Positions 3,851 to 10,127 of a DNA stretch of 55,608 nt are shown here, piece by piece (position 1 is the stretch's first letter; every line of letters begins with the position of its first letter). The stretch is from an uncultured Bacilli bacterium (lineage in GTDB: Bacteria; Bacillota_I; Bacilli_A; RF39; UBA660): NCBI GenBank assembly GCA_947522695.1, contig CANNTX010000001.1, positions 1-55,608 of the forward strand. The letters are read 5' to 3'. Below the pieces are notes generated by a model. That model was not told where the DNA came from and searched no databases. It saw only the letters and a program-made list of their open reading frames with translations. The translations under genes and the position numbers were made by a program.

Positions 3851-4682
3851 TAATGCTTTTACTAGATTTAAACATTATATATTAAATGTTTATAGAATAT
3901 TAAATAAGCCAGAGATGGCCGTATTGCCTGGTCAGCTGGCTTTTTCAATAATTCTTTCAATAGTTCCGATTATAACATTAATTGGATATGGAGCATCGTA
4001 TTTTAATATATCAATGGATACTATTATTAATATGTTAAAAAGTAATTTTTCAGATAGTATTGTTAATATGATAGTACCAATAATAAGTGGAGATAGTATT
4101 GATTTAAATTTGATAATAATGTTATGTTCAATGCTTTATTTTGCATCGAATGGACCTAGTTCTATAATATTTATTACTAATGAAATTTATGGTTTTGAAC
4201 AAACAAGCTGGTTTAAAAGAAGAATTAAGGCTATGATTATGACATTTTTAGTTATTGTGTTATATTTGTTCATATTACTTGTACCAGTTTTTGGTAGTAA
4301 GATTATTGATGCGATAGATTATTTTAATATTAAATCTGTTTTAACAAGTTTGTTAGGAATAATGCAGGGACCTATTTCATGGGTAATTATCTTTATATTT
4401 ATTAAAGTTATATTTACTTTAGCTCCTAACAAAAGTGTTGATCCAGTTAGAATAAATGTGGGAGCAATATTTACTTCACTTGGATTTATTGCTGTAACTC
4501 ATTTTTATGGCTACTATGTTAATCATTTTGCTAAGTATGATATATTTTATGCTGGATTATCAAATGTGATGGTACTACTTTTATGGATTTATTTTTTAAG
4601 TAATATATTGGTTATTGGAATATCATTAACAACCGAGGTAAATGAAGAAGATTTGCCAAAAAGTGGAAAGTTAAATTTTTAA
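3828..4682 (+). CDS. YihY/BrkB (ribonuclease BN-like) family integral membrane protein
   Basis: N-terminal LPGQLAFSIILSIVPIITLIG motif typical of the YihY family, about 6 TM segments, and overlap with the upstream gene. Confidence 0.85.
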   Translation: MKMKNKINNAFTRFKHYILNVYRILNKPEMAVLPGQLAFSIILSIVPIITLIGYGASYFNISMDTIINMLKSNFSDSIVNMIVPIISGDSIDLNLIIMLCSMLYFASNGPSSIIFITNEIYGFEQTSWFKRRIKAMIMTFLVIVLYLFILLVPVFGSKIIDAIDYFNIKSVLTSLLGIMQGPISWVIIFIFIKVIFTLAPNKSVDPVRINVGAIFTSLGFIAVTHFYGYYVNHFAKYDIFYAGLSNVMVLLLWIYFLSNILVIGISLTTEVNEEDLPKSGKLNF

Positions 4683-4793
4683 ATTTAAGACATAATAATA
4701 ACGTGCACACGAATATTACTTAGTGCACGATTAAATATTTTATGATATCAATCTAGTATTGTTGTACTAACGATATTGTAGAGTAATATTTGG

Positions 4794-4821
4794 GATGTGC
4801 ATTTAGGTGTACATCTTTTTT
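4794..4821 (+). terminator. candidate rho-independent terminator ~110 nt downstream of the yihY-like gene
   Basis: Stem GATGTGCA / TGTACATC (one mismatch), loop TTTAGG, followed by T6. Confidence 0.45.
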
Positions 4822-5064
4822 GTTTATGTAGAATTTTATATTATGTAGAGAACGACATAATTTTGTGTGCCATGCGCGGCATATACAAATGACACACATT
4901 CGCTGGAATAAGAGCCTTAAGGCAATTTATTGGGTAGACATTCAACTCGAAAAAAGTGAGTGTTCCATTTTTTATTTTATGCAGTTGTTTCTGCTTACAT
5001 GCTATGATTATCATAAAATCATCATTTTGTCAAAATTCTTTATGTAAAATTCTTTATGTAAAAT

Positions 5065-5231
5065 TTATTTTATTTTTAAACATGTTTCAATCTTACTAAC
5101 TATTACATTGTTAAAGGAAGTATCATTTTCCTTCGCTATCTTTTCAATTTCTTTAACCAAACTTTCCTTTAAATACAAAGTTTTATAGGAAGATGGTTTT
5201 TTCTCTTTTTTTTATTTGGAACAAATTTCAT
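5065..5231 (-). pseudogene. small ribbon-helix-helix-like ORF (~55 codons) interrupted by a 1-nt frameshift in a poly-A tract
   Basis: AGAGGTG RBS plus ATG at 5231 opens MKFVPNKKKRKN..., which stops at 5169-5171. The adjacent frame reads KKEKKPSSYKTLYLKESLVKEIEKIAKENDTSFNNVIVSKIETCLKIK* with no start codon of its own. Adding one A in the A8/A6 runs (5197-5213) joins the two frames. Confidence 0.45.
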
Positions 5232-5351
5232 TATATCACCTCTTTATAAATATTTTGTTATATTAATAAAATAAAGGATAAATTAGAAAATTATAATATA
5301 TCTTTTTAAAAATATATGTTATAATGAAATAAATGAAGAGAGGTAAGTTTC

Positions 5352-5657
5352 ATGAATGTTTTTGAAAAAGCACAAAAAAATTTAAAAAATGATATGATTG
5401 TATTATTTGTTTTAGAGTTAATTATTCTCGGTTTTTCAATTTACACAGAAAATATTAATATATTTTCAATTGGATTTGCAGTATTTTTGTTTATAGGATA
5501 CATCCTTGCAAAAAATGGTTCTAAATCAGCTGGAATAATTGGAATTATTGTTGGTATTTTGATGATGCTTACTATTATTACTGGTGATATAATTGATTTC
5601 TTATTAGGTTTATTTGTAATAATGCATTCTGCTAAGTACAATAAATCATTCAATTAA
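5352..5657 (+). CDS. small hypothetical membrane protein (3 predicted TM segments)
   Basis: AGAGGT RBS upstream of the ATG; hydrophobic stretches VLFVLELIILGFSIY, IFSIGFAVFLFIGYIL, GIIGIIVGILMMLTII. Confidence 0.6.
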   Translation: MNVFEKAQKNLKNDMIVLFVLELIILGFSIYTENINIFSIGFAVFLFIGYILAKNGSKSAGIIGIIVGILMMLTIITGDIIDFLLGLFVIMHSAKYNKSFN

Positions 5658-5924
5658 AAAAACATAATTTTACTTGAACGATTTGTTCTTGCTTAATTAT
5701 GTTTTAGGGTTTTAAAAGGGTTTTTCCCTTTGTACACACTCTATTGGAAATAGATATTGCTAACAAGTGAATGCTTGTCTTTTTATATGTCTATATCTCT
5801 ATCATGATAATCTTTATCAATTCCATAATTTTGTTCATTAATATAATCATTTATTTAAAGTGTGCATCTTTTTTTAAAAAAAATATTGCTTTGTTGTTAA
5901 AGCATTATTAAATTTTAGTTAATA

Positions 5925-8114
5925 TTATTTATGTTTATTTGTTTTATTATAATCATTGTCCAAAATTGCATAATATGGATTTTCAATAATAACTTTGTTA
6001 TCATCAATTTTTAAGTATTCCTTGTTTGTCATTTCGAAATCCCCGTAATTTAACAATTGTATTATATAGTCGGTGGTTAAATATTCGTTTAATTCAATAG
6101 AATATGTATCAATAAAATATTTTACATAATCATAAAATTCAAGGGTTACAAATTTTGAACTCGAATTTTCAGTTTCATATATTATTTTTCCTTTTTTATC
6201 TGACAATTTAAAATAATTTGTACCATCAATATTTTCACCAATCGTTATATTTAAATTTTTTAAATAATCTTCTTCTATTTTCTTACCATTAATAGTTAAT
6301 GATATTTTTTTATATTTATATGGTGAAATATTTAAATAGTTAGTAAGCAATTCATTAATATTATAATTGGTATTATTTGTTATGTTGTTAAATATGTATG
6401 ATATAAATTGATATTTATATTTAATGTCCCCCTTTAAAACTATATCTTCGACATTTATTAGAGTTATTTTTCCTTCTTTATTTAAAACTGAGACTCTTTT
6501 GTCTTGATTATATAATTTATTATTTTCTGGTATATCTATTATTAAATAAAGTTCATCATCTTTTGTAATACAATATTCTTTGATGGTTATATTTAGATAT
6601 CTACTAAAATTATTTAAAAAATCTTCTTTTGTTATTAAATCTTCTTTTAAATATCCATTAGATATAAGAAAATTATTGTATCTATTAAGAGTTTCAATAA
6701 ATATATTAAATAATAAATTATTGTTATTATAAGCTAAGATTAAATTGTTATTTGAATTAAAATAATTATTTAATTGTTCATACATTTCTTTTTTAGATTT
6801 AGGATTTTGTGAATAGTTAAATTTAGTTTTTGATAGATAGTTTTTGAAAGTATTTAAGTAATTATTTACAAGATTTGCATCATTAATGACTTCATTTGAA
6901 ATAAATATATCATATCCCATTTCTTTCAATATCTGATTATATTTATTTATATAGTTTTCTGCTATTGAAGAATAAGTATTACAGTCTATTAAGTTTAAAA
7001 AATTAAGAATATGAATGTATAAATTATCATTTTGATTGATACTATGAATACATAAATCAAACATTGCATCTAAAAATTCTGGAGATTCTTCTATTTTAAT
7101 ACTTTCACCTAATTTACTATATGTACGAGTCATTGCATCTGAACAATTAAATATATAATCAATATCTGATAATGGATATTTTTCTTTAAGCATATTGTAT
7201 AGTTTTGTTATACCACCTTGCTCATAATCATAGTAATTATAATCAACTAAAGTTAGTAAATAGTCTAGTATTTTTCCTTCTCTTTGATAAGATGTTACAT
7301 TTGTTATGCCACTTATTAATTTATTAATCATAGCTTCATCTATGGAATATCCTATTTTTTCTGAACGATAAATGAAATCTTCATCTTGTTTATTACTGGT
7401 CCAATTGTGGTATGAATGTGCCAATTCATGAAAAATAGTTTCATCTTCAAAAATATTATTTTTAATTTTTATAACATTTGAATGAGAATTATATGATCCA
7501 CCTATGTATTTATTCTCATTATTATCTTCAAGATCATATACTTTTAAGGTTTTTATATTGTCATAAAATATTCTATTATCTGTATTTGGATATTTTTCTT
7601 TAATATATTTCGCTAACATGATTGCTTTTTCTTTAAATGCATCATCAAAATTAGGATTATTATTAATAGCAGCAATCAAATCTTCTTCTAAAATATTATT
7701 TGTACCTAGATATGTATCTAATGTTCTAGTATCATCAAAAGAATTATCAACATATGTTGATTTTACTTCTAAAACATTTTTATCATTATTTTTTTTTAAT
7801 GCAAATGAGATAAATGAATTATAACTAATTACACCAGCTAACACTACTGAAATAACTTTGGTAAAGTCTATAACACATTCTCTAAAAGTTAGTTTTTTAG
7901 GTAATCTATCACCAATATTATAATATGAAACAAAAGGATTTCTGCCATTATATATTTTGTGTAGATTTATAAAATCATCAAGAAGGGGATATATATATTT
8001 CCCGTTTGATAATTCTAAAAAGGTTTTTCTTCCGTTTTCACATAAAAAGATAGTAAATACTTTTTTATTGTAGTGAATATTAAATAATTTTTGAACAGTT
8101 ATTTCGTTTTTCAT
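5925..8114 (-). CDS. orphan 729-aa membrane-anchored protein with an HExxH (zincin-like) motif; function unknown
   Basis: Long uninterrupted ORF. Cytoplasmic N-terminus of ~85 aa, TM VISVVLAGVISYNSFISFAL, then IFHELAHSYHNW (nt 7416-7430). I did not recognise the remainder. Confidence 0.7.
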   Translation of the reverse strand: MKNEITVQKLFNIHYNKKVFTIFLCENGRKTFLELSNGKYIYPLLDDFINLHKIYNGRNPFVSYYNIGDRLPKKLTFRECVIDFTKVISVVLAGVISYNSFISFALKKNNDKNVLEVKSTYVDNSFDDTRTLDTYLGTNNILEEDLIAAINNNPNFDDAFKEKAIMLAKYIKEKYPNTDNRIFYDNIKTLKVYDLEDNNENKYIGGSYNSHSNVIKIKNNIFEDETIFHELAHSYHNWTSNKQDEDFIYRSEKIGYSIDEAMINKLISGITNVTSYQREGKILDYLLTLVDYNYYDYEQGGITKLYNMLKEKYPLSDIDYIFNCSDAMTRTYSKLGESIKIEESPEFLDAMFDLCIHSINQNDNLYIHILNFLNLIDCNTYSSIAENYINKYNQILKEMGYDIFISNEVINDANLVNNYLNTFKNYLSKTKFNYSQNPKSKKEMYEQLNNYFNSNNNLILAYNNNNLLFNIFIETLNRYNNFLISNGYLKEDLITKEDFLNNFSRYLNITIKEYCITKDDELYLIIDIPENNKLYNQDKRVSVLNKEGKITLINVEDIVLKGDIKYKYQFISYIFNNITNNTNYNINELLTNYLNISPYKYKKISLTINGKKIEEDYLKNLNITIGENIDGTNYFKLSDKKGKIIYETENSSSKFVTLEFYDYVKYFIDTYSIELNEYLTTDYIIQLLNYGDFEMTNKEYLKIDDNKVIIENPYYAILDNDYNKTNKHK

Positions 8115-8194
8115 TTGGTTTTCACCTCTTGGAAGATTATAACATTTTTTTGTTTAATAATAAATGAATTATTTAAAGTGTTGAAAAAATGATA

Positions 8195-8247
8195 TAGTTA
8201 TCGACCAAAATTAACACTTTATATATCAAAAGTGGTCGATAACTTGC
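8195..8247. repeat. 53-bp repeat, copy 1 (contains a perfect 10-bp inverted repeat AGTTATCGAC-N29-GTCGATAACT)
   Basis: TAGTTATCGACCAAAATTAACACTTTATATATCAAAAGTGGTCGATAACTTGC; 48 of 53 positions are identical to copy 2 by manual alignment. Confidence 0.9.
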
Positions 8248-8288
8248 TTTTTTTGGATATTTATTGTACTATTTAATTGGTGATGATA

Positions 8289-9524
8289 ATGGATTTAATA
8301 TACAAAAGAGAAGATTATTTAAAAAAAGTTAGAAGTTTTTATAATGATAATATGATTAAAGTTATAACGGGAATAAGAAGATGTGGTAAGTCTTCATTAT
8401 TAAAATCTATTATTGAAGAGTTAAAGGAAAAGGGCATTAAGGAAAAAGATATTATTTATATTGAACTTGATAAGAAAGAATATAAGAATATTAAGAATCC
8501 TAAACAATTAGAAAAATTAATTGATAGTTTAATTGTTGATAATGATTTTAAATACCTGTTTATAGATGAAGTTCAAAATGTTAAAGGTTTTGAAACTGTT
8601 GTTAATGCGTATAGGGAAGAAGGAAATTTTTCAATCTTTTTAACTGGATCTAATTCATACTTGTTATCTGGCGAATTAATTACTAAACTTACGGGAAGAT
8701 ATATTGAATTTGAAATGTTACCTTTAAATTTTCGTGAGTATGTATTAATGAAAAAATTTTTAAATAAAGATGTTAATGATAATATATATAAAGAATTTGA
8801 AGAATACGTAAGATGTGGCGGTTTTCCAGGATCTTTATATTATGATAATTATGAAGATAAAATGCTATATACTAAAAATGTTATTAATCAAATATTTGAA
8901 AAAGATATTAAAAGAAATAAAAAGATTAAAGATAAACAATTATTTGAAGTTGTTCAAAAGTTTGTAATTAATAATTTTGGTTCAAGAATGAGTGTTAGTA
9001 GTATTTATAATTACTTAACTAAAGATAAAAATATAAAAGTTGATAGAAGAACAATAAAAGGGTATATAGATGTATTAGAACAGGCTAAAATAATTTATGC
9101 ATGTGATATGTTTGATATAAAATCAAAAGATGTTCTTGATGGGGAAAAAAAGTATTTTTTAGCTGATATAAGTTTATATTTTATGATTAATACAGATAAT
9201 AGAATTAATTATGGACCGGTTTTGGAAAATATATTATTTTCTTATTTTAAAAGTAAGGGATATTTATTAAGTGTTGGTAAAATTGGTAAATTAGAATGTG
9301 ATTTTATTGTAAGAAAAGGAATAGATAATTATTATTATGTTCAGGTGTCTAAAAATATAGATGATGATAATACTAGAGAAAGAGAATATAAACCTTTTTA
9401 TGCAATTAAAGAGATGTATCCTAGATATTTATTTGTGTTAGATTTAATTTTTCAAGAAAATATTGATGGAATTAAAAATGTTAATATAGTGGATTTTATA
9501 TATAATAATCAAGAATTGGTGTAG
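8289..9524 (+). CDS. AAA+ ATPase of the AAA_14 / DUF4143 type (COG1373-like)
   Basis: P-loop ITGIRRCGKSSLL, Walker B-like YLFIDEVQ, and a C-terminal region with the GGFP motif typical of DUF4143 proteins. The start is ambiguous (TTG 8277 / ATG 8283 / ATG 8289). Confidence 0.8.
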   Translation: MDLIYKREDYLKKVRSFYNDNMIKVITGIRRCGKSSLLKSIIEELKEKGIKEKDIIYIELDKKEYKNIKNPKQLEKLIDSLIVDNDFKYLFIDEVQNVKGFETVVNAYREEGNFSIFLTGSNSYLLSGELITKLTGRYIEFEMLPLNFREYVLMKKFLNKDVNDNIYKEFEEYVRCGGFPGSLYYDNYEDKMLYTKNVINQIFEKDIKRNKKIKDKQLFEVVQKFVINNFGSRMSVSSIYNYLTKDKNIKVDRRTIKGYIDVLEQAKIIYACDMFDIKSKDVLDGEKKYFLADISLYFMINTDNRINYGPVLENILFSYFKSKGYLLSVGKIGKLECDFIVRKGIDNYYYVQVSKNIDDDNTREREYKPFYAIKEMYPRYLFVLDLIFQENIDGIKNVNIVDFIYNNQELV

Positions 9525-9574
9525 TTATCGACTAAAATCTGCACTCTATATATCAAAAGTGGTCGATAACTTGC
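9522..9574. repeat. 53-bp repeat, copy 2 (overlaps the TAG stop of the ATPase gene)
   Basis: TAGTTATCGACTAAAATCTGCACTCTATATATCAAAAGTGGTCGATAACTTGC; same 10-bp inverted-repeat arms at 9523-9532 and 9562-9571. Confidence 0.9.
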
Positions 9575-9641
9575 AATTTTAATAAAATAATAGAATTTAT
9601 TTAAATTATATGATAGTATTGATATTGAAGGTGGGATAATA

Positions 9642-10127
9642 ATGAAAAAGAAAAAATTAAAATCTATTAATTATGAAAGTAATGATACTAAGGAAATTAA
9701 AAGTTTAATAATTATAACTATTATAGTTATTGCTATTGCTGTGGGATTGTTTTTCTTAACTAATTATTTAAATAATAAGAAGACAAGTAGTAATACGAAA
9801 ATAGATTATGATACTTGTATAGTAGGAAACATGTTTAATAGACCATATAATGAATATTATGTATTCTTATATAGTAGTACTGATAAAAATGCTTCTACAT
9901 ATAAAGGGTTAATTACTTCATATAAAGATAAAGATGATGCTTTAAAAGTTTATTATGTTGATATGAATGATAAGTTTAATAGTGCTTATTTAAGTGAAAC
10001 AAGTAATAAGAAACCTAGTGAATCATCTGAAGTTAAAATTAATGAATCTGCTTTAATATTAATTAAAGATGGTAAAGTAGAAAAGTATTATGAGTCTTTA
10101 GAAGATTATAAGACAGCTTTAAAATAA
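9642..10127 (+). CDS. hypothetical membrane-anchored protein
   Basis: AAGGTGGG RBS; N-terminal TM LIIITIIVIAIAVGLFFL; soluble C-terminal domain not recognised. Confidence 0.65.
   Translation: MKKKKLKSINYESNDTKEIKSLIIITIIVIAIAVGLFFLTNYLNNKKTSSNTKIDYDTCIVGNMFNRPYNEYYVFLYSSTDKNASTYKGLITSYKDKDDALKVYYVDMNDKFNSAYLSETSNKKPSESSEVKINESALILIKDGKVEKYYESLEDYKTALK

Follow-up and report, generated by a model that had tools for sequence, protein, structure and literature searches.

A PDC-S01-type ATPase gene of an uncultured gut Bacilli bacterium is bracketed by copies of its own upstream palindrome and is present or absent as a 1,327-bp unit

The window analysed here, 55,608 nucleotides (nt) long, belongs to the assembly of an uncultured gut Bacilli bacterium (1.12 Mb, 25% G+C, ~70% complete) and carries a gene for an ATPase with a nuclease-like C-terminal domain, bracketed by two copies of a direct repeat that each contain a palindrome. 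Genomes of the same genus (congeners) are labelled G###, with the window as G000 or W, and compared loci are labelled L###. The features at the locus, in window coordinates, are these.

8195–8247, no strand assigned: upstream repeat copy, with the palindrome at 8196–8244; it travels with the ATPase gene and shows 2/53 differences from the upstream copy of G003.
8244–8272, plus strand: putative sigma-70-type promoter of the ATPase gene (−35 TTGCTT at 8244–8249, 17 nt, −10 TACTAT at 8267–8272).
8289–9524, plus strand: gene with AAA_14, winged-helix and DUF4143 (PD-(D/E)xK-like) parts, 411 aa from the ATG at 8289.
9522–9574, no strand assigned: downstream repeat copy, with the palindrome at 9523–9571, overlapping the TAG stop codon; W and G003 agree at 48/53 positions, so that it diverges roughly as the flank does.
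8195–9521, plus strand: presence/absence unit of 1,327 bp, made up of one repeat copy, the promoter and the open reading frame (ORF).
9611–10127, plus strand: resident gene for a membrane protein of 161 aa, ATG at 9642; a core gene, found in 23/24 congeners.

A repeat search returns the two copies, 53 nt each, at 48/53 identity and 1,327 nt apart from start to start. Each reads AGTTATCGAC-N29-GTCGATAACT with identical 10-nt arms, and all five mismatches lie within the N29 spacer. Copy 2 starts on the T of the TAG stop codon (9522–9524), and 68 nt separate its end from the ATG that opens the next gene. An earlier reading made from the letters of the window (the original prediction) had described the pair in the same terms, and its coordinates are recovered when the repeats are derived afresh. 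None of 100 dinucleotide-preserving shuffles reproduces the palindrome pattern (expected 0.00). In copy 1 of the window the symmetry extends to 12-N25-12 (AGTTATCGACCA-N25-TGGTCGATAACT); in relatives it is wider, ~17-N15-17 (AGTTATCGACCAnTTTT ... AAAAnTGGTCGATAACT). Across the whole 1.12-Mb assembly the exact arm pattern occurs at these two sites only, so the palindrome is not a common dispersed repeat of the repetitive extragenic palindromic (REP) type, an outcome for which the original prediction had allowed. A relative with one mismatch and another spacer lies on another contig (C6:17327–17375). Scanning 7900–9900 against Rfam gave nothing credible (best E values 1.3 and 4.7, far below gathering scores). 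Resemblances to the controlling inverted repeat of chaperone expression (CIRCE), the DnaA box and dif, judged by eye, are partial half-site matches and were discarded.

From the end of copy 1 it is 30 nt to the TTG at 8277 that begins the mechanically called ORF and 42 nt to the likelier ATG at 8289; GGTGAT at 8279–8284 is a candidate ribosome-binding site. The encoded protein matches AAA_14 (PF13173, E 3.5e-35) and then DUF4143 (PF13635, E 1.4e-10), the two-domain architecture of PDC-S01, and the PADLOC profile of that family (PDLC04787) aligns at full length (E 2.6e-129, residues 4–407 against profile positions 10–409 of 412). DUF4143 is placed in the PD-(D/E)XK nuclease superfamily (PMC3424549). 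Fifteen orthologues share invariant Walker A (GxxRxGKS) and Walker B (DE) motifs together with E313, E336, D338, Q352 and K355, all five of which sit in the DUF4143 part. An AlphaFold model built from 15 orthologues has an overall predicted local distance difference test (pLDDT) score of 60; its AAA+ core and a winged helix of helix-helix-helix-strand-strand order (residues ~216–291) are both modelled with good confidence, and no claim is drawn from the fold of the nuclease part because the C-terminal region of the model is unreliable. Foldseek ranks archaeal Orc1/Cdc6 on origin DNA first [2qby and 2v1u, E ~1e-6 to 1e-7, template-modelling (TM) score ~0.3], followed by subunits of the origin recognition complex and DnaA; a sequence search against solved structures gives nothing below E 0.5. 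At the moderate confidence of this model the protein resembles Orc1/Cdc6 in its AAA+ module and winged helix. It differs in the additional PD-(D/E)xK-like domain and in a sequence similarity too low to detect, the likeness coming from the pLDDT 60 model.

With ~39,000 instances PDC-S01 takes fourth place among all ‘defence’ hits in prokaryotes, and most candidates of its kind still await validation (PMC12988326); COG1373 is among the genes often shared between gut genera (PMC10782964). The gene in the window is a candidate anti-phage gene, protection being a PADLOC prediction. In the open-access literature we found no description of a cognate palindrome or of a cassette structure for the PDC-S01/COG1373 family. 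Within the genus, small genomes (0.9–1.6 Mb) hold between 0 and 10 AAA_14/DUF4143 copies, several of them broken by stop codons; the family is highly variable and partly decaying.

Orthologues of 71–79% identity from other genera (gut Bacilli, Clostridia and genomes labelled Tenericutes) all carry the same palindrome. In 17/17 orthologues examined it starts 94–98 nt before the ATG, and its right arm abuts a near-consensus promoter (TTGACT-17-TATAAT) followed by a GGTGA ribosome-binding site. The promoter of the window, weaker than theirs, was placed by homology at the same offset from the palindrome; its −35 element at 8244 shares the last base of the right arm. A consensus promoter scan finds 19 sites against 16.6 expected and does not single out this one; because the DNA is AT-rich such a scan cannot discriminate, and the promoter is thus assigned as putative. 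In one clade the arms read TTCCCGACC/GGTCGGGAA in place of TTATCGACC/GGTCGATAA, and in a paralogous clade (64–66% identical) they go on with CAT/ATG in place of CCA/TGG. Counting the 17-pair symmetry on 25 distinct palindrome copies gives 85.6% paired cells, against 28–47% with the partner slid by 1–3 columns; both-sided (compensatory) change is found in 8/17 pairs, and 0/500 shuffles reach the observed covariation score. In the protein the putative recognition helix, VDRRTIK-x-Y, has Gly, Asn or Thr at x in the clade with ATCGAC arms and Arg in the clade with CCCGAC arms, so that the Arg belongs to the clade whose arms hold G:C pairs; a link between this residue and the arm sequence is suggestive, though shared descent confounds it.

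An exact-arm scan with one genome per species yields 86 copies in 80 loci, distributed as follows.

43 copies: 45–54 nt upstream of an orthologue (one at 113 nt; orthologues 67–95% identical).
6 copies: at or just past the stop codon of an orthologue.
18 copies: solo, with other DNA for 1.5 kb or more to either side.
19 copies: too close to the end of the locus to be classed.

No second gene family accompanies the palindrome among the 86 copies, and we therefore regard it as the gene's own cis element. Scars or leftover sites are the best interpretation of the solo copies. As befits an operator, the palindrome stands at a fixed position, abuts the promoter and is kept with the gene. Most likely, the Orc1/Cdc6-like winged helix encoded by the cassette would use the palindrome as an operator or as a recognition site. 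This role is proposed from its sole constant partner, the gene, from its fixed position, from arms that change together with the protein clade and from the clade-specific Arg. The arrangement recalls the origin boxes of archaeal Orc1/Cdc6, where inverted repeats with an AT-rich spacer lie upstream of the gene for their own AAA+ and winged-helix protein.

The original prediction had offered, as one of two readings, a shared operator/promoter that would place the ATPase gene and the downstream membrane-protein gene under one palindrome-binding regulator, with the two XRE proteins of the window as candidates. The operator-like character holds (fixed position, covarying arms) but the promoter placement does not: the spacer, its TATATA included, is not conserved in the orthologues, and the −35/−10 candidates proposed inside it therefore fall away, the conserved promoter adjoining the right arm on its downstream side, outside the spacer. 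An XRE regulator is not required as the binder, the ATPase gene being the only gene always found with the palindrome. As for control of the membrane-protein gene from a shared operator, that gene retains an extended −10 promoter of its own (TG at 9611–9612, TAGTAT at 9614–9619), which is also present in species without the palindrome; there the matching place reads TGTGATATAAT.

A wholly regulatory or RNA-level role, in which the copies are operators or insulating hairpins (repression of a toxic nuclease by looping, or an unconventional terminator) and the presence/absence pattern described below is incidental deletion, appears distinctly unlikely. The palindrome does abut the −35, A-tracts and T-tracts flank many copies symmetrically, its single strands fold well (−18 to −22 kcal/mol, z-scores −3.9 to −6.2), and a paralogue elsewhere in the assembly has three palindrome copies placed like O1/O2/O3 operators. 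The upstream copy, however, is outside the predicted transcript, and no canonical terminator is found at the palindrome (the loop is 15–25 nt and the T-run begins 3–4 nt past the stem). The persistence of 18 solo copies without a cognate gene also speaks against such a role, which would moreover leave unexplained the exchange of cassettes with borders at the copies and the identity of unconstrained spacers, both documented below.

Searching 24 congeneric genomes for the pattern and comparing the loci one by one sorts the site into four states.

Bracketed: G000 (window), G003 (L015) and G012 (L013); two copies 1,327 nt apart with the ATPase gene between them.
Solo: G013, G005, G008 and G010; both flanks matching base for base, one copy, no ATPase gene.
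Decaying solo: G016; one copy with a 12-bp internal deletion.
Naive: G018, G011, G006, G022, G017, G019, G015 and G021; no palindrome, a terminator directly before the extended −10 promoter of the membrane-protein gene.

Occupied and empty alleles differ by exactly 1,327 bp, and both are found in each of two upstream contexts: a divergent 729-aa gene (G003 versus G013), and a conserved structured block with a terminator (G012 versus G005, G008 and G010). The closest ATPases in the solo genomes G013 and G005 are only 32–35% identical, and the copies there are therefore orphans. Since the eight distant congeners lack the palindrome, it is not ancestral at this site and arrived in one subclade with the gene. 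The other reading of the original prediction, that the repeats are a footprint or att-like duplication marking the insertion of a single gene, is borne out as regards insertion by the sister species whose empty site holds exactly one copy and by the distant congeners with a naive site. The repeat differs from an ordinary target footprint in being the gene's own conserved upstream palindrome, which is found with it in 43 other species. The original prediction took relatives with the ATPase gene and no repeats to speak against it, and these exist in part: most orthologues have the upstream copy and lack the downstream one.

The one-mismatch palindrome at C6:17327–17375, with the same arms and a different spacer, lies between a gene for a UvrD-like helicase and a convergent large gene. 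This helicase-side site is solo in G000, G003, G005, G010, G012 and G013; in G008 (comparison of L010 and L016) an ATPase paralogue of 66% identity occupies it and lacks a downstream copy. The helicase-side solo copies retain a TTGACA −35 and ~17 nt of the paralogue promoter.

The closest described phenomenon is the insertion of restriction-modification genes with long target duplication, which Nobusato et al. are said to have reported in 2000. It is recognized by a flanking direct repeat of >30 bp, a one-copy empty site and the lack of a mobility gene (Furuta, Abe and Kobayashi 2010, PMC2853133), all of which the present cassette displays. Shared with those insertions are a nuclease gene of defence type, repeats of tens of bases and of variable length, and no transposase or integrase. 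Unlike them, the repeat here is the gene's own covarying palindrome plus the −35 rather than an arbitrary host target, the layout recurs with other palindromes (see below), and the cargo is a single ATPase-nuclease without a methyltransferase. The corresponding explanation, that the palindrome is a pre-existing host sequence copied when a fragment of promoter and ORF landed alongside, agrees with these formal features and with the host-like terminator included in the duplicated stretch at two other loci (L154 and G018:C42), where part of the repeat may be host DNA. We nevertheless hold it to have little probability, as the distance from palindrome to start codon is constant across orthologues of 43 species whose loci are not homologous, the palindrome covaries with the protein clade, naive congeners have no palindrome at the site as resident host sequence would require, and the cargo is not a restriction-modification pair.

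Nucleotide identity was then compared by segment between W and G003 and between G003 and G012.

729-aa gene (left flank): W versus G003 71%; G003 versus G012 not aligned.
Spacer just left of the repeat: W versus G003 64%; G003 versus G012 not aligned.
Upstream repeat copy: W versus G003 96% (51/53); G003 versus G012 87%.
Promoter and ORF: W versus G003 97.6%; G003 versus G012 94.2%.
Downstream repeat copy: W versus G003 91%; G003 versus G012 83%.
Next 550 nt to the right: W versus G003 91%; G003 versus G012 98.6%.
Beyond those 550 nt: W versus G003 81%; G003 versus G012 94.5%.

The steps in identity coincide with the repeat copies, and the history of the cassette is discordant with that of its surroundings. 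The upstream copy follows the gene; the downstream copy behaves more like flank. By this discordance, cassettes are shown to have been exchanged between species with break points in the repeat copies. Chimeric patterns do not place the crossover point, since the copies offer too little length and too much divergence.

The 1,327-bp unit is a single ORF and holds no methyltransferase, no integrase and no transposase. No resolvase and no Y1 transposase (PF01797) is found in the 70% complete assembly, and its one tyrosine recombinase is on another contig. With no match to a Y1 HUH transposase and with two exact copies and one variant only, the element is unlike insertion sequences of the IS200/IS605 family and unlike REP elements with their associated tyrosine transposases (REP/RAYT). 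Two Xer-like recombinases are common to the six congeners examined, and the solo genomes G005 and G010 hold only those. A metagenome scan for a circle or tandem junction returned 0 matches, in a collection with just one cassette-bearing contig.

The presence of two Xer-like enzymes in each congener examined, the precision of the outcome, the two inverted arms of the palindrome and the solo sites as possible landing pads would agree with site-specific recombination in which a host enzyme uses the palindrome in trans as its crossover site, as known from Xer-exploiting elements, dif modules or integrons. The dif site measures 28 bp in an 11-6-11 arrangement; no dif-like core is seen in the element, whose arms are 10–17 bp with 15–29 bp between them. 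attC sites have an inverse core RYYYAAC at the 5′ end and a core GTTRRRY at the 3′ end. Neither heptamer fits the element, which has GTT at its 5′ end and AAC at its 3′ end, the opposite orientation. Similarity to integron cassettes exists in the single-gene units, in the imperfect palindromes whose symmetry rather than sequence is conserved and which differ per cassette, and in precise gain and loss. Integron cassettes are promoterless, however, and the ATPase cassette has its own promoter, with the palindrome 5′ of the gene in that promoter region and a repeat of variable length. No arrays occur among the scanned loci and no integron-type integrase is nearby, the sole tyrosine recombinase being elsewhere, although no IntI typing was made; an attI or IntI context was accordingly not found. 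A repeat length of 49 to ~110 nt is also unexpected for a fixed crossover site. Taken with the arm geometry, the missing attC cores and the cassette's own promoter, this makes recombination by a host enzyme in trans very improbable.

The bracketed layout is found again in at least six other species, with two copies 1,337–1,369 nt apart around an orthologue. At L125 the repeat is exactly the 49-bp palindrome and the copies are 100% identical. At L152 it is ~66 nt, again with 100% identical copies, and the empty counterpart L156 matches over the motif (47/47) and the right flank (599/600). At L154 it is ~110 nt, includes an upstream terminator and has L138 as its empty counterpart; L152/L156 and L154/L138 are independent occupied/empty pairs in other genera. 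On its right side the duplication always stops in the −35 region, 0–13 nt beyond the right arm; on its left side the distance ranges from 0 to >50 nt. At L168 (CAMEXD010000026.1, copies at 89–135 and 1426–1472) the flanks are in direct orientation and the central 25 nt are inverted (22/25 matches inverted against 15/25 direct), which suggests hairpin- or cruciform-mediated events. A similar spacer flip considered at L167 was rejected (16/25 direct against 13/25 inverted).

Distant paralogues of 31–35% identity with quite different palindromes are bracketed too. The paralogue on contig C36 of G000 (35% identical, minus strand, 7578–8801) has three copies of another 44-nt palindromic element (C36:7521–8937), CTCATTGAAA ... 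TTTCAATGAG with the consensus CTCATTGAAATTCA.TGACA.AA.TGACACTAATTTTCAATGAG. One precedes a TTGCTT-17-TATAAT promoter, one separates its −10 from the ribosome-binding site, and the third follows the stop codon directly. This layout recurs in G016:C32, and similar bracketed paralogues are present in G016, G022 and G018. Recurrence of the layout around unrelated palindromes suggests that the protein or the operator architecture is involved in producing the downstream copy. Paralogues of the 37–41% clade (L036–L058) show no flanking repeats, and the bracketed form is therefore not universal in the family.

At L046 (G018:C42:3102–6903) two AAA_14/DUF4143 genes stand in tandem, the first flanked by a ~58-nt direct repeat that includes a terminator hairpin and one TGAGCAAAAACTT site; TGAGCAAAAACTT is also present as an inverted pair against the TTGACA −35 of this first gene.

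These observations can be read more boldly, as a self-mobilising one-gene element in which the ATPase-nuclease binds the palindrome of its own gene, which may be extruded as a hairpin or cruciform, and cuts at or near the edges. Cutting would drive excision, insertion and terminal duplication, the palindrome being both operator and recombination end. Recurrence in at least six other species and around paralogues with unrelated palindromes fits this, as do the complete identity of the copies at L125 and L152, unconstrained spacer included, the repeat at L125 that is the palindrome and nothing else, the right border 0–13 nt past the right arm, the inverted spacer at L168 that hairpin or cruciform processing would give, and the invariant PD-(D/E)xK-type residues in a unit with no other mobility gene. 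A left border that wanders over 0 to >50 nt and in L154 takes in host-like terminator DNA argues the other way, as does the second copy missing from most orthologues. We know of no AAA+/restriction-endonuclease protein that acts as a recombinase, and taken together we judge a self-mobilising element to be unlikely. Equally doubtful is the wider proposition that PDC-S01 genes at large are autonomous one-gene selfish elements or addiction modules. In these an Orc1/Cdc6-like ATPase-nuclease would cut a private palindrome, perhaps as a hairpin or cruciform, that serves as operator and recombination end alike. Upon insertion the palindrome would be duplicated at the far end of the gene; excision would leave a solo palindrome and the central spacer would occasionally flip.

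The cassette is a repeat-flanked, integrase-free gene of defence type, distinguished by a repeat that is the gene's private palindrome. For its behaviour we consider one explanation to have a somewhat better than even chance, namely that 8195–9574 forms a single-gene cassette complete in itself, with its own operator-like palindrome at either end, and that recombination between the copies removes it. The boundary is the gene's own cis element, a ~49-bp palindrome set against the −35, and not a host target. With a second copy of palindrome and −35 after the stop codon, the gene is boxed by direct copies, and recombination or replication slippage between them would delete exactly 1,327 bp to leave a solo palindrome. 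The outcome of this deletion is shown by the paired alleles; its mechanism we infer. Host functions are able to recombine repeats of 50–110 nt. Replacement of one cassette by another would use the conserved copies as homology, and host recombination explains both loss and replacement. The process is like the formation of solo long terminal repeats, in which recombination between terminal direct repeats leaves a one-repeat scar that then decays, as in G016; it is unlike it in the repeats of ~50–110 nt and in the lack of reverse transcription and of an integrase.

Three origins can be envisaged for the downstream copy. It may be part of the native unit, the gene being boxed by operators as in the three-site layout on C36; it may stem from a circularised fragment that integrated into a solo site in the Campbell manner; or the nuclease of the cassette may produce it by cutting around the palindrome in staggered fashion. 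The identical unconstrained spacers, the fixed right border and the flip at L168 favour an active, palindrome-centred process.

Several points weigh against the explanation given above for the cassette. No downstream copy accompanies 37/43 orthologues with an upstream palindrome, and the bracketed form is therefore not obligatory. The duplicated stretch ranges from exactly the 49-bp palindrome (L125) to ~110 nt with a terminator (L154). Loose duplication driven by homology accounts for this range no less well than a precise, site-specific process, and it is likewise favoured by the variation at the left border and by how many orthologues lack a second copy. The structure model is mediocre (pLDDT 60, TM ~0.3) and poor in its nuclease part, and shared descent confounds the association of arm sequence with protein clade.

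The locus provides the PDC-S01 family with a concrete candidate for a DNA partner in the 49-bp palindrome, the arms of which covary with the protein, and displays at one site a natural series of naive site, boxed gene, solo scar and decaying scar. If the protein binds its own palindrome, this would be a first handle on control and recognition in the family. If it also cuts the palindrome, the family would represent a new kind of integrase-free mobile gene, and the patchiness and frequent transfer of these genes would be accounted for. On the conservative reading, solo palindromes are useful as markers of past carriage in genome comparisons.

Two further features lie to the left of the cassette.

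4690–4822, plus strand: structured block with a terminator hairpin (GGGATGTGCATTTAGGTGTACATC-T6), conserved across the genus.
4832–8192 (approximate borders), no strand assigned: second accessory insert in the same hot spot, with a mini-ORF, a 101-aa ORF and the 729-aa minus-strand gene.

In other congeners the block directly abuts the palindrome or the promoter of the membrane-protein gene, and on these comparisons it is the ancestral left border of an insertion hot spot. It carries GTGCACACGAATATTACTTAGTGCAC ... ATCAATCTAGT ... AACGATATTGT and ends in the terminator hairpin. An Rfam scan of 4560–5000 gives no match for it; it may represent a small RNA not described so far, or an element at the 3′ end of the upstream gene. 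The second insert is present in W, G003 and G013 and absent from G012, G005, G008, G010 and G016, and its 729-aa gene has no match in Pfam, PADLOC or NCBIfam. Within the insert a 13-nt direct repeat, TTATTTAAAGTGT, occurs at 5851–5863 and 8169–8181, and the 3′ half of the terminator is copied at ~5855–5876.

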